Of a stretch of DNA of 64,000 nt, positions 3,555-62,578 are shown piece by piece. Below the pieces are notes generated by a model. It did no database searches. It saw nothing but the letters and a program-made list of their open reading frames with translations, and was not told where the DNA came from. Both the position numbers and the translations under genes were made by a program. How positions within the stretch are numbered: the stretch's first letter is position 1; every line of letters starts with the position of its first letter. Origin of the DNA: a bacterium. GTDB taxonomy: Bacteria; Patescibacteriota; Minisyncoccia; Moranbacterales; UBA2206. The stretch spans positions 10,448 to 74,447 of the forward strand of contig JAURXY010000026.1 in the NCBI GenBank assembly GCA_030654225.1. Reading direction: 5' to 3'.

Positions 3555-4115
3555 ATGAAAAAAATCACTCTCGTCCCATTGCTATTTTTGGGTGTAATAA
3601 TTTTTTCTGGTTGTGGTGAAAAAACAGAACAAGTAAACAATGGAGAAAAAGCCACGGAGGTGGTGGCGGATAACAATTCTCCAGTAACTGCAAAAACCGC
3701 GGAAGGAATCTGCGGAATTTTTTCCAAGGAGTTTGTCGCTTCGGCCACGGGTCTAAATGTCACAACCGCCGAAACATATGCCACGGAAGGCGTGGAAAGT
3801 TCCAATTGTCGCTATTATATTGATGGCAAAAAAATCGCGCCAGTGATCACTATTGGGAAATTCAAAAATGATTTGGAAAAAGAAAAAAAGAAATATACGG
3901 AGCATCCACTTTTCAAGGGCTGGAGGATATTAAAGAATGACACAATACCTATGGATAATCTGGTCACCTATAATGAGGTCGGGCAATTGAATGACATTTT
4001 TTTGATCACAGGCACAAATGAATATTATCGCCTAACACTCTATTCTTTCAAAACTATTGGTAGTAACGAGATGATCACGTTGGCCTTGAAAGCGCAGAAA
4101 GAGATTGGAAAGTAA
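3555..4115 (+). CDS. lipoprotein, function unknown
   Basis: signal peptide ending with lipobox FSGC. Confidence 0.5.
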   Translation: MKKITLVPLLFLGVIIFSGCGEKTEQVNNGEKATEVVADNNSPVTAKTAEGICGIFSKEFVASATGLNVTTAETYATEGVESSNCRYYIDGKKIAPVITIGKFKNDLEKEKKKYTEHPLFKGWRILKNDTIPMDNLVTYNEVGQLNDIFLITGTNEYYRLTLYSFKTIGSNEMITLALKAQKEIGK

Positions 4116-4130
4116 TTATCTATCAAGCTT

Positions 4131-4159
4131 GACAAAACGAAAAAGAAAGGGTATACTTA
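4131..4159 (+). promoter_or_regulatory. sigma70-like promoter TTGACA-17-TATACT upstream of helicase gene
   Basis: hexamers read directly from the sequence. Confidence 0.4.
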
Positions 4160-4227
4160 CTTTTTATGTTAATACATCTTCACACGTATCTAAACATAAA
4201 ATAATTAATTTTTTATGTTAGATAACA

Positions 4228-5442
4228 ATGTATAACAAAACAAACGCGCGAAGTTCTCGCGCAGACAGTTCTTATGGTGGCAAAAGAGGCGGATCGCGTG
4301 GCGGTTCTCGTCCAAGTGGTCGAAAAAGATTTACTGGCAATGTAATTGATGTTAGTCGTTTCATTTGTAAGGCCAAAGAAATTGTGCCAACGGAAGTTTT
4401 CAAGCCTCGCTATGAATTTTGCGATCTTGAAATTCATACATTGCTCAAGCGCGCTATTGAAAGTCGTGGTTTTGCTGTGCCAACTCCGATTCAAGATCAA
4501 GCTATTCCGGCCATTCTTGCAGGAAAAGATGTGATTGGCTTGGCTAACACTGGCACTGGGAAAACGGGGGCTTTTCTCATTCCAATGATCAATAAAATTC
4601 TTTTGAATCCGCGTGAAAAAGTTTTGATTGTGACGCCGACTCGTGAGCTAGCCATTCAAATTCAAGATGAATTTATGGCGCTGGCTAAAAGACTAAATAT
4701 TTTTTCTGTGGTAGTAGTGGGAGGGGCGGATATTCGAAGACAAATAAAAGAATTGCATAGACGACATAATTTAGTCGTGGGTACTCCAGGGAGACTCAAA
4801 GACTTGATCACCCGAAAAGTTTTGGATCTATCGCAATTTAGTAGTGTGGTGCTCGACGAAGCTGATCGCATGCTCGACATGGGATTTATCAATGATGTAA
4901 ATTGGCTGTTGTCTCTCGTGGCAAAACAAAGACAGATTATGCTTTTCTCAGCAACATTCGGCGCTGAGATTGAAAGTTTAACCAGAAAATTTTTGGTTAA
5001 TCCTGTGAAAATTTCTGTTAAAAGTGGAGAGTCAGCTGGGCAAATTGATCAAAATATTGTGCGCATGGAAAAAGGCAAGGACAAGACAGACACACTGCAT
5101 GATTTGCTCATTCAAGCTAAATTTGAAAAAGTTTTGATTTTTACCCGCACCAAGCATGGCGCCGACAAGCTAACCAAGAGTTTGCTTCAGCGAGGTTTCA
5201 AGACTGAATCTATTCACGGCGACAAACCACACAGCAAAAGACAACGGGCACTCAAAATGTTCAAAGAAAATATTGTGGAAATTTTGGTCGCCACTGATGT
5301 GGCTGCTCGCGGACTCGACATTCCAAATGTGAGTCACGTCATTAATTTTGATCTTCCTGCAACTTATGAAGATTATGTCCACCGCATTGGTCGCACCGGT
5401 CGCGCCGACAAAAAAGGCATCGCGCTGACTTTTGTGGAATAA
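4228..5442 (+). CDS. DEAD-box ATP-dependent RNA helicase (RhlE/DeaD-like), Arg/Gly-rich N-terminus
   Basis: Q-motif, Walker A GTGKTGAF, DEAD, SAT, HRIGRTGR. Confidence 0.9.
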   Translation: MYNKTNARSSRADSSYGGKRGGSRGGSRPSGRKRFTGNVIDVSRFICKAKEIVPTEVFKPRYEFCDLEIHTLLKRAIESRGFAVPTPIQDQAIPAILAGKDVIGLANTGTGKTGAFLIPMINKILLNPREKVLIVTPTRELAIQIQDEFMALAKRLNIFSVVVVGGADIRRQIKELHRRHNLVVGTPGRLKDLITRKVLDLSQFSSVVLDEADRMLDMGFINDVNWLLSLVAKQRQIMLFSATFGAEIESLTRKFLVNPVKISVKSGESAGQIDQNIVRMEKGKDKTDTLHDLLIQAKFEKVLIFTRTKHGADKLTKSLLQRGFKTESIHGDKPHSKRQRALKMFKENIVEILVATDVAARGLDIPNVSHVINFDLPATYEDYVHRIGRTGRADKKGIALTFVE

Positions 5443-5526: not shown

Positions 5527-6132
5527 TTATTCAAGCGCCAAAGGGATGCAGGCCGGAACATCAAGGCAGGTATTTTTATCGAGAAAAATTCTTACCCAGC
5601 CGACATCTGTTAGGGAGATAGAATTCCGAATAACATTACATCCGGTGGTCAATTTGTCATTTTCTGAAAGTTCAATAGGAAATTTGAAATTGACATTTCC
5701 TCGAAGAGCGATTGGTAATCTGGGAGCAACTTCAACCCAGTTATAATTGCTTAACTTAATAAGAACTGAACTGTTACATCCTATACGAGGATTTTCCAAA
5801 ACTTTTTCTCCATTTGCAATTTCATCTTGAGCTCGCAATGCTTGTGGTTGAGCGATATCGGTTGTGCGAAGCATATTTACGCCCGCTCCTTTGTGATGAC
5901 GAAAATACTCCCTTAGCCCATAGGAAACACCTCTATTTATTTCAGGCCAACCCGGGGTTTCCAATTTGGCTAACCTGCCTTTTCTTATGTATACGAGTTG
6001 CATTGGATTACTTAGATCCATAAACATAATTCCAACGGAACGATTCTTTTCCTTTCCGCGAATTACGCACAATTTTCCTTCGTATTTCCCAGAGAGAACT
6101 TTATAGATATTACTTTCTGGCTTTATAATCAT
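5527..6132 (-). CDS. hypothetical protein; locally elevated GC
   Basis: long ORF; no recognisable motif; composition differs from neighbours. Confidence 0.4.
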   Translation of the reverse strand: MIIKPESNIYKVLSGKYEGKLCVIRGKEKNRSVGIMFMDLSNPMQLVYIRKGRLAKLETPGWPEINRGVSYGLREYFRHHKGAGVNMLRTTDIAQPQALRAQDEIANGEKVLENPRIGCNSSVLIKLSNYNWVEVAPRLPIALRGNVNFKFPIELSENDKLTTGCNVIRNSISLTDVGWVRIFLDKNTCLDVPACIPLALE

Positions 6133-6248: not shown

Positions 6249-7700
6249 CTATCTCTCCAAATCCAACACTTCATCAATCCTAATTTGCGAAACGAATTCG
6301 GGGACGTGGCTCACGAGAATCATAGCGCCTTCGAAGGAATTCAAGGCTTTGGCGATGATGGGCAGATGGCGAAAGTTGATGTGGTTGGTTGGTTCGTCTA
6401 GGATCAAAAGCCCCGGTTCTTCGAGCATAAGACGAGCAAAAGCCACCAGACCTTTTTGTCCTTCAGAAAGTGAACCGATTTTGGCGTCGATAATGGTTTT
6501 GTCGATGAGAAAACCGGAAGCCACAGAGCGCATTCGTTCTTCATCTTCATTTCGCATAACAGCAAAAAGGGAATTGCGCACGGTATCTTCAAAATTGAGA
6601 GTGGAAAAATCCTGGCGGTAATATCCCACGCGAATGCCTTCGGTAATTTTTGCGCCCTTAGCAGATCCTGTGGCGAGAGATTCAAGTAGGGTGCTTTTGC
6701 CAATGCCGTTTGGTCCGGCGAGGAGTAGATGAGTTTTTTTCTTGAGAGAAATTTTGACTTTCTTTATTTCCGGTTCATGATTTTTCATCACCGTGAGTGA
6801 AGAAATGTTTATTATCTCTCCAATTAATCCATCCTGGACTGGAATTTCAAAATCACGAATAGCTTTGTCTTCACGCCTAACATCCACTTTCGCTTCTTCC
6901 ATCTCTTCAGCTTTGTCGCGCATCTTTCGGGCCACGAGTCGCATCTTGCCACCCTTGTTAGCAAAGAAGTTGGCTTTTTCTTTATTAGCAATGATTTCTT
7001 TTTCATATTGGGCGTTTTTCATTTTTTCTTTTTCAATTCGATCGGCAATTTCCGCTACCACGACATAATAGTCGCCGAGATATTGTTCAACTTTGTGGGT
7101 GAAGATGTCGAGATAGAGCACGCCGTCGGTAAAAGAATTTAAAAAGTCCGCATCATGAGAAATCACGATGCAAGTTTTGTTGTAGCTCATCAAAAATTGC
7201 GTGAGATGTTCAATGCCGGCTTTGTCTAAATTATTCGTTGGTTCATCTAGAATCAAAAGATCCGGATCTTGAATCAACGCCGAAGCTAAAAGCAGGCGGG
7301 CTTGTTGTCCGCCGGAAAAAGATTTGACTATTTTGTCATGTGGAGCTTTCAAGTTTACAAGGTCTAGTACCTTGTCAATTTTTGGATCAAGATTATATAA
7401 TTTCTCAGTGAAACATTTAGCAAAAAATTCTTTGACAGTAAGTGTCATTTGTTCGGCCGGAATAACTTGTTTGGCATAAGCAATTTTGAGAGTGGGATTG
7501 ACATAGATGGAACCATCTTCTTCTTTCAAGGATCCTGTAATCAAATTCAAAATAGTCGATTTTCCAGCGCCATTTTGTCCCATAATAGTGATTTTAGTGC
7601 CTTGCCTGAGCGAAAAAGAAGCCTCATCGAGGATGGGTTTTTTGTGTCCGTATTCAAAAGAAACTTTGTTAAATCTAACTGCAACGTCGTCTTTGGCCAT
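6249..7700 (-). CDS. ABC-F family ATPase (translation factor-type; two ABC domains, no TMD)
   Basis: two Walker A (GQNGAGKST, GPNGIGKST), two LSGGQ-like signatures, two Walker B LILDEPTN. Confidence 0.85.
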   Translation of the reverse strand: MAKDDVAVRFNKVSFEYGHKKPILDEASFSLRQGTKITIMGQNGAGKSTILNLITGSLKEEDGSIYVNPTLKIAYAKQVIPAEQMTLTVKEFFAKCFTEKLYNLDPKIDKVLDLVNLKAPHDKIVKSFSGGQQARLLLASALIQDPDLLILDEPTNNLDKAGIEHLTQFLMSYNKTCIVISHDADFLNSFTDGVLYLDIFTHKVEQYLGDYYVVVAEIADRIEKEKMKNAQYEKEIIANKEKANFFANKGGKMRLVARKMRDKAEEMEEAKVDVRREDKAIRDFEIPVQDGLIGEIINISSLTVMKNHEPEIKKVKISLKKKTHLLLAGPNGIGKSTLLESLATGSAKGAKITEGIRVGYYRQDFSTLNFEDTVRNSLFAVMRNEDEERMRSVASGFLIDKTIIDAKIGSLSEGQKGLVAFARLMLEEPGLLILDEPTNHINFRHLPIIAKALNSFEGAMILVSHVPEFVSQIRIDEVLDLER

Positions 7701-16484: not shown

Positions 16485-16488
16485 AATC

Positions 16489-16575
16489 TTTACTAATTAC
16501 GAATTAAGTACGAATATACTAATAAAAAATTCGTACATTCGTATATTAGTAAATGATTAATAATTCGTAAAGACA
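16489..16575. repeat. TACGAAT/ATTCGTA palindromic intergenic repeat, copy a
   Basis: about 85 percent identical to 48968-49047; imperfect palindrome. Confidence 0.7.
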
Positions 16576-25230: not shown

Positions 25231-25354
25231 TTGAAAATCTTTACGAATTACTAATCAAATACTAATATACGAATAATATTTATAAGTTGAGAGAATTTTT
25301 TTAGTTTACATTAGTATATTCGTACTTAATTCGTAATTAGTAAAGAATAAGTTT

Positions 25355-25822
25355 ATGGCAAGAAGAAAAAGAATTTATCAAAAAAATACTAAACCTGATC
25401 CAAAGTATAACAACATACTAGTTGGAAAATTTATGGTGAGCATCATGGAAAGCGGAAAGAAAACTATTGCAGAAAAAATAATGTATGATTCTTTTGATAT
25501 CATTCACGAAAGAACAAAAAAGGGTGGTTTGAATATTTTTGAACAAGCTATTAAGAATGTTTCTCCTTTGGTGGAATTGAAATCCCGCCGAGTTGGAGGT
25601 GCTAACTATCAGGTGCCTGTTCCCGTAGCAGGAGACAGAAGAACAACTTTGGCTATTCGTTGGTTAAAAGTAGCTATTAATGCGAAAAAAGGCAAGAAAA
25701 TGGCAGAAAAATTGGCTGATGAACTAATTGATGCTTCCAACAAAATTGGCGGAGCTATGAAAAAACGAGAAGATGTTCATCGAATGGCTGATGCTAATAA
25801 GGCTTTTGCGCACTTCGCTTAA
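25355..25822 (+). CDS. rpsG: 30S ribosomal protein S7
   Basis: family match, 155 aa. Confidence 0.95.
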   Translation: MARRKRIYQKNTKPDPKYNNILVGKFMVSIMESGKKTIAEKIMYDSFDIIHERTKKGGLNIFEQAIKNVSPLVELKSRRVGGANYQVPVPVAGDRRTTLAIRWLKVAINAKKGKKMAEKLADELIDASNKIGGAMKKREDVHRMADANKAFAHFA

Positions 25823-25924
25823 TTTACGAAAGTACGAATCTGGCGAAATTACGAATTCGTATTTTCGTTTAATTCGTATATTCGTAAATTATAAATAAAA
25901 TTAAGAAAGTAAAAATCAAATTAT

Positions 25925-28015
25925 ATGGCTCGAGAATACCCAATCGAAAAATATCGCAATATCGGAATTATCGCTCATATTGATGCTGGAAAAACCACCA
26001 CCACGGAGCGTGTTTTGTTTTATACCGGTATCACTCACAAAATTGGTGAAGTGCATGAAGGCGCTGCAACGATGGACTGGATGGAACAAGAAAAAGAACG
26101 AGGAATTACCATCACTTCAGCCGCGACAACTTGTTTTTGGAAAGATCATCAAATTAATATTATCGATACTCCGGGACATGTGGACTTTACCGTGGAAGTG
26201 GAAAGATCGCTTCGTGTTTTGGACGGTGGTGTGGTAGTTTTTGATGGCAAGGAAGGTGTGGAACCACAATCAGAAACAGTTTGGCGACAAGCAGAAAAAT
26301 ATAAGGTGCCGAGAATTTGTTTTATCAATAAAATTGACAAAGAAGGTGCTGATTTTTATTACGCTCTAAAAACTATTTGGGACAGACTTACTCCAAACGC
26401 GGTAGCTGTGCAACTTCCGATTGGAGAGCGAGGAGATTTTTCTGGCGTGGTGGATTTGATTAAAATGAAAGCTTATACTTTTTCTGGAGAGATGGGAGAA
26501 ATTGTCAATGAAGAAGAAGTTCCAGCTGACATGCTCGAAAAATCCAAAGAGTGGCGAGAAAAAATGGTAGAAAAAATTTCTGAAACTGATGACGCGCTCA
26601 CAGAAAAATTTTTAAACGGTGAAGAAATTTCGCAAGCGGAACTAAAATCGGCTCTTCGCAAAGGAGTCAACGCCGTGACGCTCGTTCCAGTTTTCACAGG
26701 CACTGCTCTTCGAAACAAGGGAGTGCAATTAGTGCTAGATGCGGTAGTGGATTATCTGCCATCCCCAATTGATGTTCCAGCAATCAAAGCAACGGAAGTT
26801 GATGATGAAACTAAAGAAGTAGCCATTAAATATGATGACAGCGCTCCTTTTTCTGCTTTGGCTTTCAAAGTAGCTACTGATCCATTTGTCGGTCAACTAA
26901 CTTTCTTTAGAGTCTATAGCGGAATGCTCAAAGCCGGTTCTTATGTTTTGAATTCTTCTAAAGGAGAAAAAGAAAGAGTGGGCCGAATTCTGCGAATGCA
27001 TGCTAATCATCGAGAAGAAATTGACGAAATTTATACTGGAGGAATCGGAGCGCTTGTTGGAATGAAAAATACTACTACAGGAGACACTTTGTGTGATCCA
27101 GAAAATCCAGTTTTACTGGAAAAAATAACTTTTCCAGAACCAGTTATCTCAATCGCCGTGGAACCAAAAACTAAAGCTGATCAAGAAAAGATGGGAATGG
27201 CTCTTAGAAAATTAGCCGAAGAAGATCCAACTTTCAAAATTAGAACTGATGAAGAAACGGCTCAGACTATTATCTCCGGAATGGGCGAATTACATCTCGA
27301 TATTATCGTGGATCGAATGAAAAGAGAATTCAAAGTTGAAGCTAATATCGGTCAGCCACAAGTAGCTTATCGAGAAACAATTAAATCCAACGCCCAAGCG
27401 GAAGGAAAATATATCAAACAATCAGGTGGACGCGGACAATATGGCCACTGTTGGATCAAAGTGGAACCGCAAGAAGCTGGCAAAGGATTTGAATTCGTGG
27501 ATGAAATCAAGGGTGGCTCTATCCCGCAAGAATATATTGCTCCGATTGGCAAAGGAATCAAAGAGGCGATGGACAACGGAGTTTTGGCGGGGTATCCAAT
27601 GGTGGACATCAAGGCCACTGTATATGACGGATCTTTTCATGATGTTGACTCCTCAGAGGCAGCCTTTAGAATCGCTGGTTCAATGGCTTTCAAAGAAGCT
27701 TCTCGTCGGGCCAACCCAATTATCATGGAACCGATTATGAAAGTAGTGGTGACGACCCCAGAGAATTTTATGGGGGATGTGGTGGGAGATTTGAACTCCA
27801 AGCGAGGTATCATCAAAGAAATGAATGATCGCGGAGAAGGCAATGCGCGAGTAAAAGAAATTGACGCCGAAGCCCCACTTTCTTCAATGTTTGGTTATGC
27901 CACTCAACTTCGCTCAATGACCCAAGGTCGCGCCAACTATGTGATGGAATTTTCCCACTACGCCGAAGTGCCGAAGAATGTGGCGGAAGGAATTATTAGT
28001 GGGGATAAGAAATAA
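25925..28015 (+). CDS. fusA: elongation factor G
   Basis: G-domain [17 protein letters not shown]; 696 aa. Confidence 0.95.
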
Positions 28016-29805: not shown

Positions 29806-29833
29806 GTAGAGACGCAAAATTTTGCGTCTCTAC
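29806..29833. repeat. 28-bp perfect palindrome GTAGAGACGCAAAATTTTGCGTCTCTAC (REP-like), copy 1, 25 bp upstream of RAYT gene
   Basis: exact copies at 30147-30174 and 54579-54606. Confidence 0.9.
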
Positions 29834-29858: not shown

Positions 29859-30416
29859 ATGTCAGAATTATTCAAAAACAAATACACAATTAAATCATCC
29901 AGATTATCAAATTATGATTATTCTCAAAATGGAATGTACTTCGTTACGATTTGCACGAAAGACAAGGAATATTTTTTTGGGGAGGTGAAAAATGGGGGAA
30001 TGGTGTTGAATGATGTGGGGAAAATGGCAGATAAATATTGGCGCGAAATTCCAGCGCATTTTCCATTTGTAAGATTAGATGAATTTGTTGTAATGCCCAA
30101 TCATGTGCATGGGATTGTGGAAATTGCAAAAAACATTGATGCTAGCGTAGAGACGCAAAATTTTGCGTCTCTACAGGGCGAAAGGGGAAATAAATTTGGT
30201 CCACAATCAAAAAATTTAGCCTCTATAATTCGTGGTTTTAAGGTGGGGGTAAAAAAATATACAACAAAAAATGAAATTTATTTCCAATGGCAACCCCGTT
30301 ATTACGACCAAATAATTCGAAACGAAATTTCCCTAAACAAAATTCGTGAATATATCCAAATTAATCCGCAGATGTGGGAAAGAGATAAAAACAGTTTAGA
30401 AAATATATTTATGTAA
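29859..30416 (+). CDS. REP-associated tyrosine transposase (RAYT) / IS200-like HuH transposase
   Basis: HuH motif MPNHVHGIV; C-terminal EYIQINP and RYYDQ Tyr region; contains in-frame REP copy 2. Confidence 0.7.
   Translation: MSELFKNKYTIKSSRLSNYDYSQNGMYFVTICTKDKEYFFGEVKNGGMVLNDVGKMADKYWREIPAHFPFVRLDEFVVMPNHVHGIVEIAKNIDASVETQNFASLQGERGNKFGPQSKNLASIIRGFKVGVKKYTTKNEIYFQWQPRYYDQIIRNEISLNKIREYIQINPQMWERDKNSLENIFM
30147..30174. repeat. REP-like 28-bp palindrome copy 2, in-frame inside RAYT ORF (encodes SVETQNFASLQ)
   Basis: exact palindrome. Confidence 0.9.
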
Positions 30417-40115: not shown

Positions 40116-40192
40116 AATTTACGAAAGTACGAATTAAACTAAATTACGAATTCGTATTTTCGCTCGATTAGTAATTTCGTAAATGAAAAACA

Positions 40193-44336: not shown

Positions 44337-44342
44337 AAAATT

Positions 44343-44462
44343 GTCATTCCCGCGAAGGCGGGAATCTAGTGTAGAAGCTAAATAAAAAAGAATAGATTAT
44401 ATAAAAAGATTGGTTATTTTAAAATAAACTTAAGACTAGATCCCCGCATCCGCGGGGATGAC
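44343..44462. mobile_element. MITE-like element A1 (28-bp TIRs GTCATTCCCGCGAAGGCGGGAATCTAGT / ACTAGATCCCCGCATCCGCGGGGATGAC)
   Basis: imperfect terminal inverted repeats, each itself a hairpin; AT-rich core; second copy at 54342-54435. Confidence 0.65.
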
Positions 44463-44541
44463 AGAGAAAAAAGAAATAAAAAAAACCGGAGATATGTCAG
44501 ATGTTACTAGACACATGCCCCGGTTCGGCCAATTGCAAGCC

Positions 44542-45414: not shown

Positions 45415-45546
45415 ATTTATGCTATAATTAAAATGTAAATTATGTCATGCTGAACTTGTTTCAGCATCTCTATTAATAGCAAAAATTATAATAAGATCCC
45501 GAAATAAATTCGGGATGACAATTAGTAATCATTAAATTTAAGAGAA

Positions 45547-50398: not shown

Positions 50399-50419
50399 AA
50401 TTACAAAATTAAAAATTCT

Positions 50420-51803: not shown

Positions 51804-52838
51804 ATGAATATAAAAATAAACGGAAAAATTTACGAGGCAAAAGCAGGTGAAGCAATATTTGCGGTTTGCAAAAAAAATGGGATAAAAGTTCCGACTTTGT
51901 GTTCGACGAAAAAATTTCAAGAAGGGGTATGTCGAATTTGTGTGGTTGAGATAGGCGGAAGATTGGTGACTTCTTGCAATACAAAAGTTTGCGAAGGGAT
52001 GGAAATTGTAACTGAAAGTGAAAAGATTGAAAAAGCACGGCGGATTAATCTGGAACTTTTGTGGGCGGATCACGCTGGGAAATGCGCGACTTGCAAAAAA
52101 AATCAAATGTGCGAATTGCAAAATTTAGCCTTGGAATATAAGATTGAAAATTTTCATTTCATTCCGAGAAAGGGTGAAATAACAGGCGCGGAAGAATTGG
52201 ATTTGATCAAAGATAATTGGTCTCGCGTGGTGGTAGAAAATGAAAATCCCTGCATATCCAGAAATAGCGAGCTTTGTATTGAATGTCGCAGATGTATCAA
52301 TATTTGCCCAGAGAAAAAATTTGGCTTTAACTATCGTGGTAATTCTGTGGTGGTGGGAACTCCTTATGAAAAAGTTTTGGATTGCAGTTTTTGTGGAAAA
52401 TGTGTAGAGGCGTGTCCTACGGGAGCGCTCACGGATCAAAATAATTATTTGAAAATCGTGGAAGATCTGGATAATCTTGAAAAATTTTCAGTGGCTGTTT
52501 TAGATCTCGGAATAGAAGAAAAAATATTAAAGGCGATGGGAAAAATAAGCCCAGAGAAGGATTTGAATAAATTGCTAATCAATTTAGGTTTTGAGAAGAT
52601 TGTAAAATTAGGAAAAGAAAATTTGAAAATTGAATTTGTGAAAAATATTAAAGATGAATATTCCAGAACCAAAAAAATAAATCAGCAAGATATTGTGGTA
52701 TTTTTCATTTCTTCAAGGATTTATGAGAAAGCTAAGCGAGATAAAAATTTGGATTATATTCTAAGTGAAAGGGAAGTGGCGAGATTGGTTAGAGATAAGG
52801 AGAAAATAAAGATAGGAAAAATTCACCCTATTAAATAA
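51804..52838 (+). CDS. NuoG-N-terminal/HoxU-like [2Fe-2S]+[4Fe-4S] subunit with about 110-aa Cys-free C-terminal extension
   Basis: 2Fe-2S Cys; CIECRRC, CSFCGKC clusters; SD GGAG. Confidence 0.75.
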   Translation: MNIKINGKIYEAKAGEAIFAVCKKNGIKVPTLCSTKKFQEGVCRICVVEIGGRLVTSCNTKVCEGMEIVTESEKIEKARRINLELLWADHAGKCATCKKNQMCELQNLALEYKIENFHFIPRKGEITGAEELDLIKDNWSRVVVENENPCISRNSELCIECRRCINICPEKKFGFNYRGNSVVVGTPYEKVLDCSFCGKCVEACPTGALTDQNNYLKIVEDLDNLEKFSVAVLDLGIEEKILKAMGKISPEKDLNKLLINLGFEKIVKLGKENLKIEFVKNIKDEYSRTKKINQQDIVVFFISSRIYEKAKRDKNLDYILSEREVARLVRDKEKIKIGKIHPIK

Positions 52839-52863
52839 ATTTTAAATTTTTAGCCAAATTTAC

Positions 52864-53085
52864 ATGCAGTATGTTTATGTCTTGAAAAGTAAAAAAGATA
52901 ATAAAAATTATGTAGGTTATACTAAAAATTTAAAATTAAGATTTGAGCAACATAACAAAGGACTGGTGCTTTCTACTAAAAATAGAATACCACTAAGTCT
53001 TATATATTATGAAGCTTGCCTAAATCAACAAGATGCTACTAAAAGAGAAAAGTATCTAAAACTATTTACGGCAAGCGATATATAA
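52864..53085 (+). CDS. GIY-YIG nuclease family small protein (YhbQ-like)
   Basis: YVYVLKS ... YVGYT ... RFEQH ... KRE motifs. Confidence 0.7.
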   Translation: MQYVYVLKSKKDNKNYVGYTKNLKLRFEQHNKGLVLSTKNRIPLSLIYYEACLNQQDATKREKYLKLFTASDI

Positions 53086-53117
53086 AAAGTAGGCTCAAAT
53101 CTTATTTAATAGGGTAA

Positions 53118-53324
53118 ATGTGTCTCGCAATTCCAGCAAAAATTATAAAAATCAACGGTCAACTGGCGATAGTTGATTTTCAGGGTGCAAAAAAAGAAAT
53201 AAATATCAGCATTGTGGATGTTAAGGTTGGTGATTATGTGATGGTACACGCTGGTTTTGCGATTGAGAAGATGGAGAAAGATAATGTGAAAGAAATTAAC
53301 GCCTACTTAAAAAATGGAATCTAA
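53118..53324 (+). CDS. hypC: hydrogenase maturation factor HypC
   Basis: MCLAIP N-terminus. Confidence 0.85.
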   Translation: MCLAIPAKIIKINGQLAIVDFQGAKKEINISIVDVKVGDYVMVHAGFAIEKMEKDNVKEINAYLKNGI

Positions 53325-54354
53325 GAAAATCATAAAAAGTATTTGGGAGAAAGCACAAAAAATTAATCGATCACTTCGATTTATGGAACTTTGTGGAACG
53401 CATTCAGAAAGTATTGCTAAACATGGGATAAAAAATATTTTACCAAAAAATATAAAACTCATTACCGGACCTGGCTGTCCGGTTTGCGTCACTGATCAAA
53501 GTGAAATTGATATTGTCACGGGACTAGCGCTCGCTGGAATTCCAATTGCTTGCTATGGAGACGCCACTAACATTCCTGGAAGTTTAGGTAGCTTGGAAAA
53601 TGCTCGGCAAAATGGTGCGCAAGTTTTCATTGTTTATGATGTGGCAGAAGCCATTGAAATTTCCAAAAAAATTTCCAATTTGGTTTTTTGGGGAATTGGT
53701 TTTGAAACAACCACTTCGATGACAGCATGGGGGATTAAAAACAATCTTACAGTTTTTTCTTCCCACAAACTTTTTCCGCCAGCTATGGAAGCGTTGATGG
53801 CAAACAAAAAAATTAGAGTTGATGGCTTTATCAATCCGGGTCATGTGAGTGCTATTATCGGAACGAAAGTTTATGAAAAATTCCAAATACCACAAGTGAT
53901 TGCTGGCTTTGGCGCAGAGGACGTTCTTCTGGCGATTGAAATGCTTTTGGATCAAATAATTTCTGGAGAAAAAAAAGTGGAAAATGAATATGCGAGACTG
54001 GTGAAAAAGGAAGGCAATATAAAAGCGAGAAAATTAATTTCAGAAGTTTTTGAAATCAGAAATGCTTCTTGGCGAGGTTTGGGAGAAATCAAAAATTCCG
54101 GATTGAAAATTCGAAAAAAATATCAGCATCTTGACGCTGAATTTATCCATCGAGATTTGATTGCGAAAATAAAAAAAGAAATTAAACCAAGAAAAAGTAT
54201 CTGTCGTTGTGGAGAAGTTTTGCAAGGATTGATTGAATCAAAGCAATGTAAATTATTTGGAAAATCTTGCACGCCTGACAATCCTCAAGGTGCTTGCATG
54301 GTTTCGAGGGAAGGGAGTTGTAATATTGAGTACAGATTTATGTCATTCCCGTGA
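53314..54354 (+). CDS. hypD: hydrogenase maturation factor HypD
   Basis: CGTHS ... GPGCPVC motifs; last 4 codons and stop lie inside MITE TIR. Confidence 0.85.
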   Translation: MESKKIIKSIWEKAQKINRSLRFMELCGTHSESIAKHGIKNILPKNIKLITGPGCPVCVTDQSEIDIVTGLALAGIPIACYGDATNIPGSLGSLENARQNGAQVFIVYDVAEAIEISKKISNLVFWGIGFETTTSMTAWGIKNNLTVFSSHKLFPPAMEALMANKKIRVDGFINPGHVSAIIGTKVYEKFQIPQVIAGFGAEDVLLAIEMLLDQIISGEKKVENEYARLVKKEGNIKARKLISEVFEIRNASWRGLGEIKNSGLKIRKKYQHLDAEFIHRDLIAKIKKEIKPRKSICRCGEVLQGLIESKQCKLFGKSCTPDNPQGACMVSREGSCNIEYRFMSFP

Positions 54355-54435
54355 AAACGGGAATCTAGTCATAAAAATGTTTTTATCGCGATAAATTTAA
54401 TTTCTACACTAGATCCCCGCATTCGCGAGGATGAC
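54342..54435. mobile_element. MITE-like element A2 (TIRs GTCATTCCCGTGAAAACGGGAATCTAGT / ACTAGATCCCCGCATTCGCGAGGATGAC)
   Basis: same architecture as 44343-44462; lies between hypD and hypE, overlapping the hypD stop. Confidence 0.65.
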
Positions 54436-54442
54436 AAACTTT

Positions 54443-55450
54443 ATGAATAAAATAATTGAATTAGAAATGGGCGGAGGAGGAAAAAAATCGGAAGAACTTA
54501 TTGGAAACATAAGGAAAATTTTGAATGTTCGTGGAAAATGGAAAAACACTAAGGATGATGGGGCGGTTTTTGACTTGAGTAGAGACGCAAAATTTTGCGT
54601 CTCTACGGGGGGTAATAAGTTGGTGTTTACCACCGATGCTTTTATTGTTGACCCACTGTTTTTTCCGGGAGGGGATATTGGAAAAATTGCGATTTGCGGA
54701 ACGTTAAATGATCTTTCGGTTATGGGCGCTAAGCCGATTGGAATTTCACTCAGTATTGTAATCGAAGAAGGATTTTTGCAAAACGATTTGGAAAAAATAA
54801 TTCAGTCTATAAATAAAATTTCGAAAGTTACAGGCGTTCCGATTGTGACGGGGGACACAAAGGTGACAGAAAAAGGCAAGATAGATAAAATTGAAATTAC
54901 CACTTCGGGAGTAGGGCTCGCTTCAAAAATAATTTCTAATGATGGCGCAAAAGTGGGGGATGATATAATCGTTTCTGGCGATCTTGGTGAGCACGCAGTA
55001 GCGCTTTTGGCCAAGAGATTTAACTATCAAACAAAAATAAAAAGCGATTGTCAACCGCTCATTGCCGAAATTCAAAGTGTAGCTAAATATCTTACTTCTT
55101 GCAAGGATCCAACGCGTGGCGGACTGTCCGCTGTGCTAAATGAAATGGCGGAAAAATCCAAAACTAAATTTGTTTTAGATGAAAAAAATTTACCATTTAA
55201 AAAAGAAACTGTGGCAATTTCAGAACTTCTTGGCATTGATTTTTTTTCTTTTCCATCAGAAGGAAGGTTTGTGGCGACAGTGGCGAGAAAAAATTCCAAG
55301 AGAGTTGTTGAAATTTTGAAAAAATATAATAAATCTGCTAGAATAATTGGAGAAGTGCAAAGGGGCAAAGAAGTTTGGCTGAAAACCAAAATTGGATCTG
55401 TCAAAAAAATTGAAGTGCCAAGAGGAAAATTAATTCCACGGATTTGCTAA
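54443..55450 (+). CDS. hypE: hydrogenase maturation factor HypE
   Basis: DPLFFPGGDIGKIAICGTLNDL; contains in-frame REP-like palindrome. Confidence 0.85.
   Translation: MNKIIELEMGGGGKKSEELIGNIRKILNVRGKWKNTKDDGAVFDLSRDAKFCVSTGGNKLVFTTDAFIVDPLFFPGGDIGKIAICGTLNDLSVMGAKPIGISLSIVIEEGFLQNDLEKIIQSINKISKVTGVPIVTGDTKVTEKGKIDKIEITTSGVGLASKIISNDGAKVGDDIIVSGDLGEHAVALLAKRFNYQTKIKSDCQPLIAEIQSVAKYLTSCKDPTRGGLSAVLNEMAEKSKTKFVLDEKNLPFKKETVAISELLGIDFFSFPSEGRFVATVARKNSKRVVEILKKYNKSARIIGEVQRGKEVWLKTKIGSVKKIEVPRGKLIPRIC
54579..54606. repeat. REP-like 28-bp palindrome copy 3, in-frame inside hypE (encodes RDAKFCVST)
   Basis: exact copy of 29806-29833. Confidence 0.9.
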
Positions 55451-56123: not shown

Positions 56124-57437
56124 TTATTTTCCCAAAAGATAATAAACGATTTGCCCAAAAGAAAGTCCGGCGTCGCCACGGGGTATATTTTTATTGGCAT
56201 AAGCTCCTTTAGAAATAAGATACTCGGAAATTATTTTATTATTGGCAATGCCGCCAGCGATAAAAATATTGTCATGAGCAAATGCAGGTTCAGGTATCTT
56301 GCCTGAACATTTTATTTCTGGAAAAATTTTATTTAAATTGCTAAATTTAAGTTTATCAGAACTTTGCGGTTTAATCGGGACGATTGAACCTGCATTATTA
56401 TAGCATTTTAGTTTTATTATTTTATACAAGCCATTGACTATATAAAGTTGAGCAGTGGCGGCAAGACGATGCTTATCTTTTTTATGTAAGTATTTAATTA
56501 CGTAATTAAATAAATAAGTAGTATCTAAAATATATTCATCTTCCGAAATTGTTATTTTTGGTTTTAAATCAGAATAAGGTTTAGCTGAATTTTTTTCTAG
56601 TAAATCAATGGGTTCATGCTTGTATTTTCGGGCATTCCCACAAAAACCTAAAAGTAAAGAAACAGCATCCAAAACTCTTCCAGCGCTAGAAGTTTCGAGG
56701 CAATTGAAATTTTGTTGAAGCTGATTATATATAAGTTCAAATTCGTTTTTGGTGTAGAATTTTTTGACGAAATTATAAATATTTTTTTTGTGTTGTATCT
56801 CGCCCTTACCCTCTCCTGTCGCGAGTACGCGACATCCTCTCCCAAAGGGAGAGGAGGAATCTGAAAAAAGTTTATATAAAACTCCAATGAGCATTCTGGC
56901 TGGCTCTCGTACAGCCAAATCCCCACCAACCATAACCTGATTTTCCAAATGCCCAATTCGTTTTACGCTTTCTACTTTATTCTTTCTACTTTCTACTTGA
57001 AAGATTTCTCCGCCCCAAATTTTTTCATCTACTCCAAAACCAGTACCATCTATAGCGATTCCATAAAAAGTAGAAGGTAGTAAGTAGGAAGTATTATGCA
57101 AAATTTTGTCTCCAATAGAAGAAAATATGTGAGCGAGGTGATGTTGAATAAAAAGGTGTTTCACTTTATATTTTTTGGCGAGTTTCTCTCCCCAAATAGT
57201 GGTTTTATATAGCGGATGAAGGTCAGTGAGAATTATTTGCGGTTTAATTTTTTGTTTTTTCAAATATTGCAAAACTTCTTTTTGATACCTTTCCCAATTT
57301 TCTTCTTCCAATAAATCCCCAAAATCATCCGAAAAAAATATTTTTCCATCACGAAAAACCGAAAAATTCCCAGCCGATTCAGCGCCGAGAGCTAAAATGG
57401 ATATATTTCTTTTGTATCCAAGGGAAATTGTTTGCAT
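56124..57437 (-). CDS. hypF: HypF C-terminal (Kae1/TsaD-like carbamoyltransferase) domain protein; lacks acylphosphatase, Zn-finger and YrdC domains
   Basis: LALGAESAGNFSV, TDLHP, QHHLAHI, IAIDGTGFGVDEKIWGGE; start trimmed to MQTISLGYK. Confidence 0.75.
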   Translation of the reverse strand: MQTISLGYKRNISILALGAESAGNFSVFRDGKIFFSDDFGDLLEEENWERYQKEVLQYLKKQKIKPQIILTDLHPLYKTTIWGEKLAKKYKVKHLFIQHHLAHIFSSIGDKILHNTSYLLPSTFYGIAIDGTGFGVDEKIWGGEIFQVESRKNKVESVKRIGHLENQVMVGGDLAVREPARMLIGVLYKLFSDSSSPFGRGCRVLATGEGKGEIQHKKNIYNFVKKFYTKNEFELIYNQLQQNFNCLETSSAGRVLDAVSLLLGFCGNARKYKHEPIDLLEKNSAKPYSDLKPKITISEDEYILDTTYLFNYVIKYLHKKDKHRLAATAQLYIVNGLYKIIKLKCYNNAGSIVPIKPQSSDKLKFSNLNKIFPEIKCSGKIPEPAFAHDNIFIAGGIANNKIISEYLISKGAYANKNIPRGDAGLSFGQIVYYLLGK

Positions 57438-60526: not shown

Positions 60527-60531
60527 CGCTT

Positions 60532-60655
60532 GTCATTCTGAGCGTAGCGGAGCGAAGTCGAAGAATCTGCCTTATATTTTAACTATTTATAGTATTTAGT
60601 AGATCCTTCGACTACGCAAAATTACTTTTCGTAATTTTACTTCGCTCAGGATGAC
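60532..60655. mobile_element. MITE-like element A3 (variant; TIRs GTCATTCTGAGCG / CGCTCAGGATGAC)
   Basis: same terminal heptamer as A1/A2; internal complementary arms. Confidence 0.5.
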
Positions 60656-60894
60656 ATTATTTCAAAGTGAGTTGGTCACAAAATGTGACAAGCTAAAAAT
60701 ACAGTTTTCCAAATAAAGTGGTTATAAATTGTAACCGATTGAAAATACTAATTTGAAGCGACAAGATTGCCAGGGATGCTAGAATTGCGCTGGAAGAAAA
60801 AACTGGAAAGTCAGTCGTTACCAAAGAAAATTATTTATTGAAAGATGAATCGAAAAAAAGTTTGAAATAAAAAATTTATAAATCCGTTCCTGCA

Positions 60895-62310: not shown

Positions 62311-62578
62311 AATCTAAGTATAAAATATTATATATCTAGTATATAAAAAAAGACACAATGTGTCCACTTCGCCTTACTCTTTGCAAAACTTCGCTTTTCT
62401 TTTTCCCGCAAAAAGAAAAGTAACAAAAGAAAAGCTCTCAGCCGAGCTCACGCGCCAATAAATTTTAGCGAAAAAGTTGAAAATTTATCTTTCTATGAGC
62501 CGGATGGCCTTTTTCTTTTTTGCCACTTTTCTTTTGGGAAAAGAAAAATGGCGAGGAGTATGAATTATAATACGTATT

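Follow-up and report, generated by a model that had tools for sequence, protein, structure and literature searches.

Paired SRM/NTS-type hairpins in a Moranbacteria genome as probable miniatures of an ssn nuclease cassette

A class of repeats that has been studied in Neisseria for 25 years was linked to an enzyme only in 2025, and the analysis described here now shows it to occur in CPR bacteria, whose genomes are reduced. Chenal et al. (Nat Commun 2025; PMC11893778) define the 28-nt Neisseria Transformation Sequence (NTS), CGTCATTCCCGCGMAVGCGGGAATCYRG, and also a degenerate Ssn-related motif (SRM), HGTCWYN(0-2)YYVSBRHN(0-5)WNVSBRGN(0-2)RNCYNB. SsnA is a 94-aa single-domain GIY-YIG protein that binds the NTS hairpin solely as single-stranded DNA (ssDNA) and in one sense (GTCAT), cuts a few nucleotides upstream of the motif, and does not act on RNA; Ssn homologues of two other Neisseria species and of Wolbachia behave in the same way on their own motifs (PMC11893778). 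In N. meningitidis, the role demonstrated for NTS and SsnA is modulation of transformation, not transposition (PMC11893778). The Neisseria repeat dRS3 is the flanking component of the units called NIME. These have the form dRS3-RS-dRS3, in which 20-bp ATTCCC-N8-GGGAAT inverted repeats enclose an RS element of 50-150 bp, with spacers of 19-214 bp and a lower GC content (PMC1797815).

The window, by which we mean the whole 64-kb stretch of DNA that was analysed, has a G+C content of 36%. Its synteny with contigs of the Candidatus Moranbacteria genomes UBA4824 (locus L029) and RIFOXYA12_FULL_35_19 (locus L057), to which it is ~84% identical in nucleotides, assigns it to a Moranbacteria (CPR/Patescibacteria) genome. 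It carries four small inverted-repeat elements, which we call A1 (44342-44463), A4 (45443-45520), A2 (54341-54436) and A3 (60531-60656). All four are intergenic, have the same orientation (recorded on the plus strand), measure 78-126 bp with AT-rich cores, and start with TGTCAT and end with ATGACA. Each arm forms a hairpin of its own that is followed by ATCT(AG). The unpaired flanks are constant, but the stems vary among copies, being CCCGCG, CCCGTG, GCTGAA, CCCGAA or of a longer type, CTGAGCG. Folded as ssDNA, the elements have z-scores of -4.2 to -7.5 relative to shuffled sequence, and GTCATYC occurs 23 times in the window against 10.6 expected. A sequence-only reading of the same DNA had placed a 120-bp hairpinned inverted-repeat element at 44343-44462, a second with the same architecture at 54342-54435, and a third with the same termini and a different interior at 60532-60655. 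All three are there as A1, A2 and A3, each extending one base further on either side.

A1 lies 3' of map. Its arms (approximately 44342-44370 and 44435-44463) are 28-29 nt long, are 86% complementary to each other, and enclose an AT-rich core of 64-66 nt. The left arm reads TGTCATTCCCGCGAAGGCGGGAATCTAG, both arms contain a perfect 8-bp hairpin (ATTCCCGC/GCGGGAAT and ATCCCCGC/GCGGGGAT), and both match the SRM pattern, the right one on the minus strand. The usual continuation of the operon after map had been described as missing where A1 sits, which is accurate as a description; because the gene order around map is the same in L029, A1 is not the cause. A2 is an SRM doublet between hypD and hypE, with arms at 54341-54368 (plus strand) and 54409-54436 (minus strand), and homologues of it are found at other loci (L017 and L009). 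The left hairpin of A2 contains the stop codon of hypD (54352-54354), and the hypD frame ends M-S-F-P-stop. A3, 3' of a phosphoglucomutase/phosphomannomutase (PGM/PMM) gene, shares the termini TGTCATTC / GGATGACA with the other copies, whereas its arms (60531-60568 and 60601-60656) are longer and different, and have the TGTCATYCTGAGCG...CGAAGTCGAAGRATCT form, in which small inner hairpins vary. A4, between ruvX and a gene for a family-2 glycosyltransferase (GT2), had been taken for a degenerate copy at about 45445-45519. Its arms (45443-45469 and 45494-45520) have differing stems, GCTGAA and CCCGAA, but keep the TGTCAT and ATCT flanks and two intact 8-bp hairpins, and a relative that is 80% identical occurs in another Moranbacteria genome (L019 4059-4143), so A4 is an intact member of another subfamily.

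Several further repeats were seen in the window. TACGAA/TTCGTA-rich palindromic repeats occupy intergenic positions 16486-16525, 25237-25346, 25820-25928 and 40116-40184, and the same family is present in Moranbacteria loci L001, L009, L023 and L026. A perfect 28-nt palindrome, GTAGAGACGCAAAATTTTGCGTCTCTAC, has three copies (29806-29833, 30146-30175 and 54579-54607), one of them within the hypE coding sequence, and is also found in L001 (3299-3326). A segment of ~100 nt at 62461-62558 is 88% identical to positions 3126-3225 of L019, which belongs to another Moranbacteria genome.

The published SRM pattern has exactly four matches in the window, in the left and right arms of A1 and of A2 (four of the eight arms), compared with 0.05 expected and a maximum of one across 100 dinucleotide shuffles. 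The left arm of A1 is the Neisseria NTS/dRS3 with one mismatch. The arms of A3 and A4 do not match the published pattern, though they share its flanks and architecture. From the fetched loci as a whole, we assembled 127 distinct arms of 28 nt, picked by their outer anchors alone, and found the six variable stem pairs to be paired in 94.6% of cases, versus 82% when partners were shuffled and 36-54% when the partner was slid. Four of these six pairs show changes on both sides. Given this degree of pairing and the double-sided changes, the arm hairpin is under selection. The loop in the 127 arms is G-N-A-R, and neither the GTC nor the C flank varies. DNA loops of the GCGAAAGC kind have unusual stability, as would suit a substrate of ssDNA. 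Viral contigs scanned with an exact arm and with a degenerate arm gave no match, and a literature search on the arm sequences returned primers and the Ssn paper alone.

These hairpins occur mostly as inverted pairs, or doublets. We scanned one genome per species for the inner arm ends CGGGRATCTAG and CTAGATYCCCG separated by 38-68 nt, and obtained 59 loci. The hosts include many Neisseria (where the matches are NIME units), Rickettsia/Tisiphia, Methylophaga, Methylotenera, Undibacterium, Campylobacterales, Pirellulales (Planctomycetes), Elusimicrobia, and several Moranbacteria genomes; all told, at least four Moranbacteria genomes share the doublet layout. When metagenomes were scanned with one exact arm, at least 120 loci were found. 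For at least 44 of 102 such single-arm matches, a strict partner in inverted orientation lies no more than 160 nt away, and imperfect partners are seen for many others. Over all loci, part of which had been chosen by the doublet pattern itself, 167 of 190 adjacent arm pairs with their GTCAT ends outward are spaced by 0-80 nt, as against just 26 of 126 in the opposite orientation. The fetched loci contain 175 distinct doublets, with a median length of 102 nt. Dozens of very short doublets, with an 8-nt spacer and the second arm GATACCCACTTTCGTGGGTATGACA, were also seen in L069-L143 (JQIA01 contigs, all from one sequencing project), where they form part of a larger conserved repeat whose flanks are similar. 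The Rickettsia doublets recovered are those of L030, L037 and L047, and they may correspond to RPE families. A literature search joining Rickettsia palindromic elements to GIY-YIG proteins found no paper.

Longer forms of the doublet carry a gene. In L070, a TGTCAT-arm is followed by 37 nt, a 95-aa GIY-YIG ORF, 5 nt and an arm that ends in ATGACA, and ssn takes the core position in six or more contigs, several of them from CPR bacteria (L070; L186 from Parcubacteria; L187 and L193 from Pacebacteria; L198; and L203). These arm-ssn-arm elements of ~390-475 nt have the same termini as the gene-less doublets, and they sit in the spacers of housekeeping genes, such as enolase / iPGM in L193 (473 nt) and polA / ribD in L203. 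Overall, ssn is associated with the same arms in L070, L116, L008, L186-193, L198 and L203, and the gene between or beside the arms is the GIY-YIG gene ssn in all of eight or more independent contexts. A search for a cognate transposase had been suggested, but none was found; the gene that accompanies the arms encodes an ssDNA nuclease of ~95 aa with a GIY-YIG domain, not a DDE transposase. Annotated homologues of the L070 protein come from Patescibacteria, Pacebacteria, Falkowbacteria, Portnoybacteria and Parcubacteria, and an arm of the GAGCGAAGCGAAG type, similar to those of A3, adjoins the ssn gene in Patescibacteria loci L190-192.

Compared with these gene-carrying forms, the window elements have the anatomy of gene-less miniatures, and they appear to be miniatures of the arm-ssn-arm cassette. 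A doublet that stands beside ssn in L187 can be aligned with the full-length element of L193, in an arrangement that is nested and not clean, and the alignment suggests that the core of the doublet is made of the untranslated ends of the cassette. No gene for a GIY-YIG protein of the Ssn type (cd10448) is present in the 64-kb window. PDB sequence searches with proteins of both GIY-YIG families, that of Ssn and the one described below, gave weak UPF0213 matches at most and no Ssn structure to use. As separate observations, positions 4001-4297 and flanks of L190-L192 hold ssn with several SRM arms inside the NiFe hydrogenase operon of a Patescibacteria genome, which is paralleled by an unrelated GIY-YIG cassette within the hydrogenase/hyp cluster of the window, and L001 has a 92-aa GIY-YIG ORF (2014-2292) in a tRNA gene cluster, with its 3' end overlapping one tRNA gene.

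In comparisons of related genomes the elements look mobile. Filled and empty sites were compared between genomes that are ~84% identical, and the exact insertion junctions are therefore approximate. At the hypD-hypE junction, where the window has the 96-nt A2, the relative GCA_002328565.1 (L002, L003) has an empty site of 4 nt; cutting 54341-54436 out of the window would presumably give back a plausible end of hypD, overlapping the start of hypE. The spacer between the nuoE-like and nuoF-like genes is an empty site of 21 nt in the window (50399-50419), and in L057 it holds an A1-type element that is 83% identical to A1 and lies directly 3' of the nuoE-like stop codon (L057 4794-4913). This junction is variable, being empty in the window, filled by an SRM doublet in L057 and occupied by TTTTCAAT-type repeats in L029 (874-953). 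A4 is missing from the ruvX-GT2 spacer of L029. At the A1 site, L029 has an element (6800-6907) whose arms are identical to those of A1 at 27/28 and 26/28 positions and whose core, diverged or replaced, comes from a different subfamily than the window core. This suggests that the core was replaced by recombination at the arms, or that insertion occurred repeatedly at one site.

One insertion lies in frame within a gene. In L002, an A3-type doublet inside hypF (5616-5752) replaces about 45 residues, and canonical HypF is not known to have these ~45 residues. At the same position of hypF, the window carries a different insert of 143 nt (56267-56409), which starts with TGTCATGAGC, contains a 12-bp inverted repeat (56281-56292 / 56385-56396), and may be an element of another kind or one that has decayed. 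A hairpin-rich segment elsewhere in the hypF coding sequence (56800-56866, encoding ...PFGRGCRVLATGEGKGE...) recurs in L017 (4917-4983) and L005 (12778-12834), and may be another repeat that is tolerated in frame.

Homology among copies from different genomes ends exactly at TGTCAT and ATGACA. Upstream of the arms G is scarce and T frequent, and in the 175 doublets position -1 is without exception a pyrimidine. The sequence-only reading had proposed a search for further copies and for target-site duplications (TSDs), and had taken unique sequences without TSDs as evidence against a mobile family. Copies proved to be many, but no TSD was found in the four window copies or the 175 doublets under two boundary definitions, the observed frequency being equal to that of a shuffled control.

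We put a probability of roughly 0.7 on the elements being inverted pairs of SRM/NTS-type hairpins that are miniatures of the ssn cassette and that have spread via ends recognized by Ssn. In the mechanism we propose, an Ssn nuclease encoded elsewhere in the genome or in the population would recognize the ends of the element whenever replication, repair or DNA uptake leaves these single-stranded. The arms of a doublet point inward, such that each strand should present one sense hairpin at its 5' end; from this arrangement and the published cleavage upstream of the motif, Ssn is predicted to cut just outside both element boundaries. Host repair or recombination at the cut hairpins could then spread or exchange the elements without TSDs, and the inserted copies would be tolerated as neutral passengers in spacers and, at times, in frame in genes. 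That Ssn cuts the arms of the window elements is a prediction, as is any part that it may have in their copying. To our knowledge, GIY-YIG nucleases have no DNA strand-joining activity, so cutting alone does not explain copying, and spread by such a nuclease is the weak point of the mechanism. Also against this explanation are the lack of an Ssn-type gene in the window, the A3 and A4 arms that do not match the SRM pattern, and the role demonstrated in Neisseria, which concerns transformation.

The hairpins might instead be domesticated sites, at which Ssn restricts or shapes the recombination of incoming ssDNA in transformation; the elements would then be immobile, and the doublet would be merely the form in which sites accumulate. 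This proposal agrees with the modulation of transformation by NTS and SsnA in N. meningitidis (PMC11893778) and with the long-standing idea that NIME arrays promote recombination (PMC1797815). It also accommodates the orthologous site after map, where the arms are far better conserved than the cores and where the different cores in the window and L029 are expected if arms are recombination points. We nevertheless consider it unlikely as a full account, since insertion polymorphisms at several sites among close relatives, the in-frame insertion in hypF, and the overwriting of the hypD stop codon by an insertion look more like selfish spread than like regulatory sites that were placed, and the window has no arrays around particular gene classes. 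Domesticated sites are compatible with miniatures that spread via Ssn-recognized ends, and the two explanations are not mutually exclusive. A domesticated function in the control of incoming ssDNA, like that in Neisseria, would agree with all of the observations.

The only GIY-YIG gene of the window, which no SRMs flank, resides in a mobile cassette on the plus strand (52818-53118), between a hydrogenase subunit gene and hypC. Its product (ORF 52864-53085, 73 aa) is a single-domain protein that matches PF01541 with an E-value of 2.8e-15 and belongs to an 84-aa CPR family with 4433 matches, relative to which its C-terminus is frameshifted; an NCBIfam search with it gave no meaningful family. 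The cassette has its own inverted repeat of 13-17 bp (CCCTATTAAATAA / TTATTTAATAGGG; CCCTATTAARTAA / TTAYTTAATAGGG), contributes the final codons and the stop of the hydrogenase subunit gene that precedes it, and has copies that are 96-97% identical in three unrelated gene contexts. We give little credence to the idea that this protein, and not one of the Ssn-type family, recognizes the hairpins. It is a nuclease located 1.3 kb from A2, its gene is itself mobile, and it has homologues in the SRM-flanked Ssn-type proteins, with 38% identity across 65 aa (E 5e-13). However, it falls in a different family, with 141.9 bits on the CPR 84-aa profile versus 42.7 bits on the Ssn-type profile, whereas the scores of the SRM-flanked proteins are reversed, and it lacks the C-terminal W-x-R/K-x-W-K...NP-x-W-x-DL region that those proteins have. 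The inverted repeat of its cassette is unrelated to the arms, no SRM lies in the ~55 kb around six copies of the gene in relatives, and members of the 84-aa family in SRM-bearing contigs are at least 2.4 kb from SRMs. The profile scores, the separate repeat, the lack of nearby SRMs and the frameshifted C-terminus together indicate a separate mobile cassette that is unlikely to be the partner of the elements. As a candidate partner the gene was thus mostly rejected, on the grounds of its other family, its own inverted repeat and the SRM-free copies in relatives.

A function as RNA, whether as small RNAs, mRNA-stabilizing hairpins or transcription terminators, seems very improbable to us, although the predicted folds are strong and A2 must be co-transcribed with hypD-hypE. 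At curated thresholds, Rfam identifies only a tRNA in the window. With relaxed thresholds, A1 aligns end to end with RF02625, or WsnRNA46 (Wolbachia sRNA 46; positions 20-140 of the 151 in the model), with a score of 39.3 bits (E 3e-6) that is below the gathering score of 65.3. The consensus of this model is itself a doublet, TGTCAT...CCAG-core-CTGG...ATGACA, and WsnRNA46 is among the most multi-copy annotated sRNAs (PMC9029176), which suggests that this Wolbachia "sRNA" belongs to the same repeat class; expression of one Wolbachia copy does not turn the family into an RNA gene. Other features also argue against RNA function: the cores are unconserved, none of the hairpins has a T-run after it on the coding strand, termination between hypD and hypE would be detrimental, and SsnA is inactive on RNA (PMC11893778). 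Intrinsic termination had been considered separately and was rejected, as terminator-like calls were confined to the minus strand and to two arms, and A2 lies inside an operon.

The elements match the anatomy of REPINs in their inverted hairpin doublets, lack of TSDs, intergenic location and conserved single-stranded flanks (REP/RAYT literature cited in PMC11893778). Yet it is extremely improbable that they are REP/REPIN-like or IS200/IS605-derived palindromes moved by a Y1 HUH transposase (RAYT or TnpA), since the gene at the arms in the eight or more independent contexts is always the GIY-YIG gene ssn and never one for a Y1 transposase, the ends of IS200/IS605 are not inverted copies of each other, and no Y1 transposase is found among the window ORFs examined. 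A classical MITE from the insertion sequence of a DDE transposase is scarcely conceivable: the earlier description of the family as MITE-like holds for the 78-126-bp size, terminal inverted repeats, AT-rich core and several copies, for the 175 doublets and the filled and empty sites, and for derivation by deletion from an autonomous element with the same ends (here the gene-carrying arm-ssn-arm form), but it fails in that TSDs are no more frequent than in the control, the termini are structured hairpins with covariation, and the full-length relatives encode a nuclease and no transposase.

A broader grouping can tentatively be proposed. The arm-ssn-arm cassettes and the gene-less doublets may constitute one unrecognized class of mobile element, of which Neisseria NIMEs, WsnRNA46 and the Moranbacteria elements would all be members. 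Such a class would be ssDNA-based, with a GIY-YIG nuclease replacing the transposase and with autonomous and miniature forms, would be spread over many phyla including the CPR, and would be capable of in-frame insertion. We regard this grouping as possible, with the odds somewhat against it. Whether a GIY-YIG nuclease drives an IS-like element that works on ssDNA can be tested directly. Inverted pairs, a pair that encloses the nuclease gene, and presence or absence among relatives, all of which are observed here, were raised in the enzyme paper only as a possibility. There is also a warning for annotation, in that doublets can overwrite stop codons, extend proteins and pass for small RNA genes.

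Among described systems, the SRM/NTS-Ssn system (PMC11893778) shares with A1 and A2 the SRM pattern itself, the oriented flanks (GTC upstream and C downstream) and a compensating hairpin, and environmental and CPR contigs have a single-domain GIY-YIG gene of ~95 aa between the same arms. The present case differs in its host, as Moranbacteria (CPR) are absent from that paper; moreover, the window has no ssn gene, and the arms of A3 and A4 lie outside the published pattern. The paper covers single hairpins and the NTS-ssnA-NTS arrangement, and its text is without doublets, REPIN-like units or MITEs (PMC11893778); the view of doublets as mini-cassettes therefore adds a point that is not spelled out there.

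NIMEs are similar in that many Neisseria units were retrieved by the doublet pattern with the same ends (CGTCATTCCCGCG...GGGAATGACG) and spacing, and in their mosaic cores, which can differ at a single site. ATTCCCN8GGGAAT is matched by the left arms of A1 and A2, whereas the right arms read ATCCCC...GGGGAT or ATCCTC...GGGGAT and do not fit; the cores are 40-66 nt. According to their description, NIMEs are confined to Neisseria, where long arrays of them are frequent, in contrast to the single units in the window, which lie in a CPR genome of 36% GC. WsnRNA46 resembles the elements in its termini and its inner CCAG/CTGG boundaries, and differs in its stems, its core and its sub-threshold score. 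REPIN/REP-RAYT systems are alike in outline, with inverted hairpin doublets, no TSD and one small repeat-flanked gene, but they have a Y1 HUH transposase in place of a GIY-YIG nuclease and an unrelated motif. By this analogy, for which we claim no membership, REPIN/RAYT seems to be the closest analogue in apparent working, while the elements themselves are SRM/NTS hairpin doublets of a known repeat class in a new host group, the Moranbacteria of the CPR.
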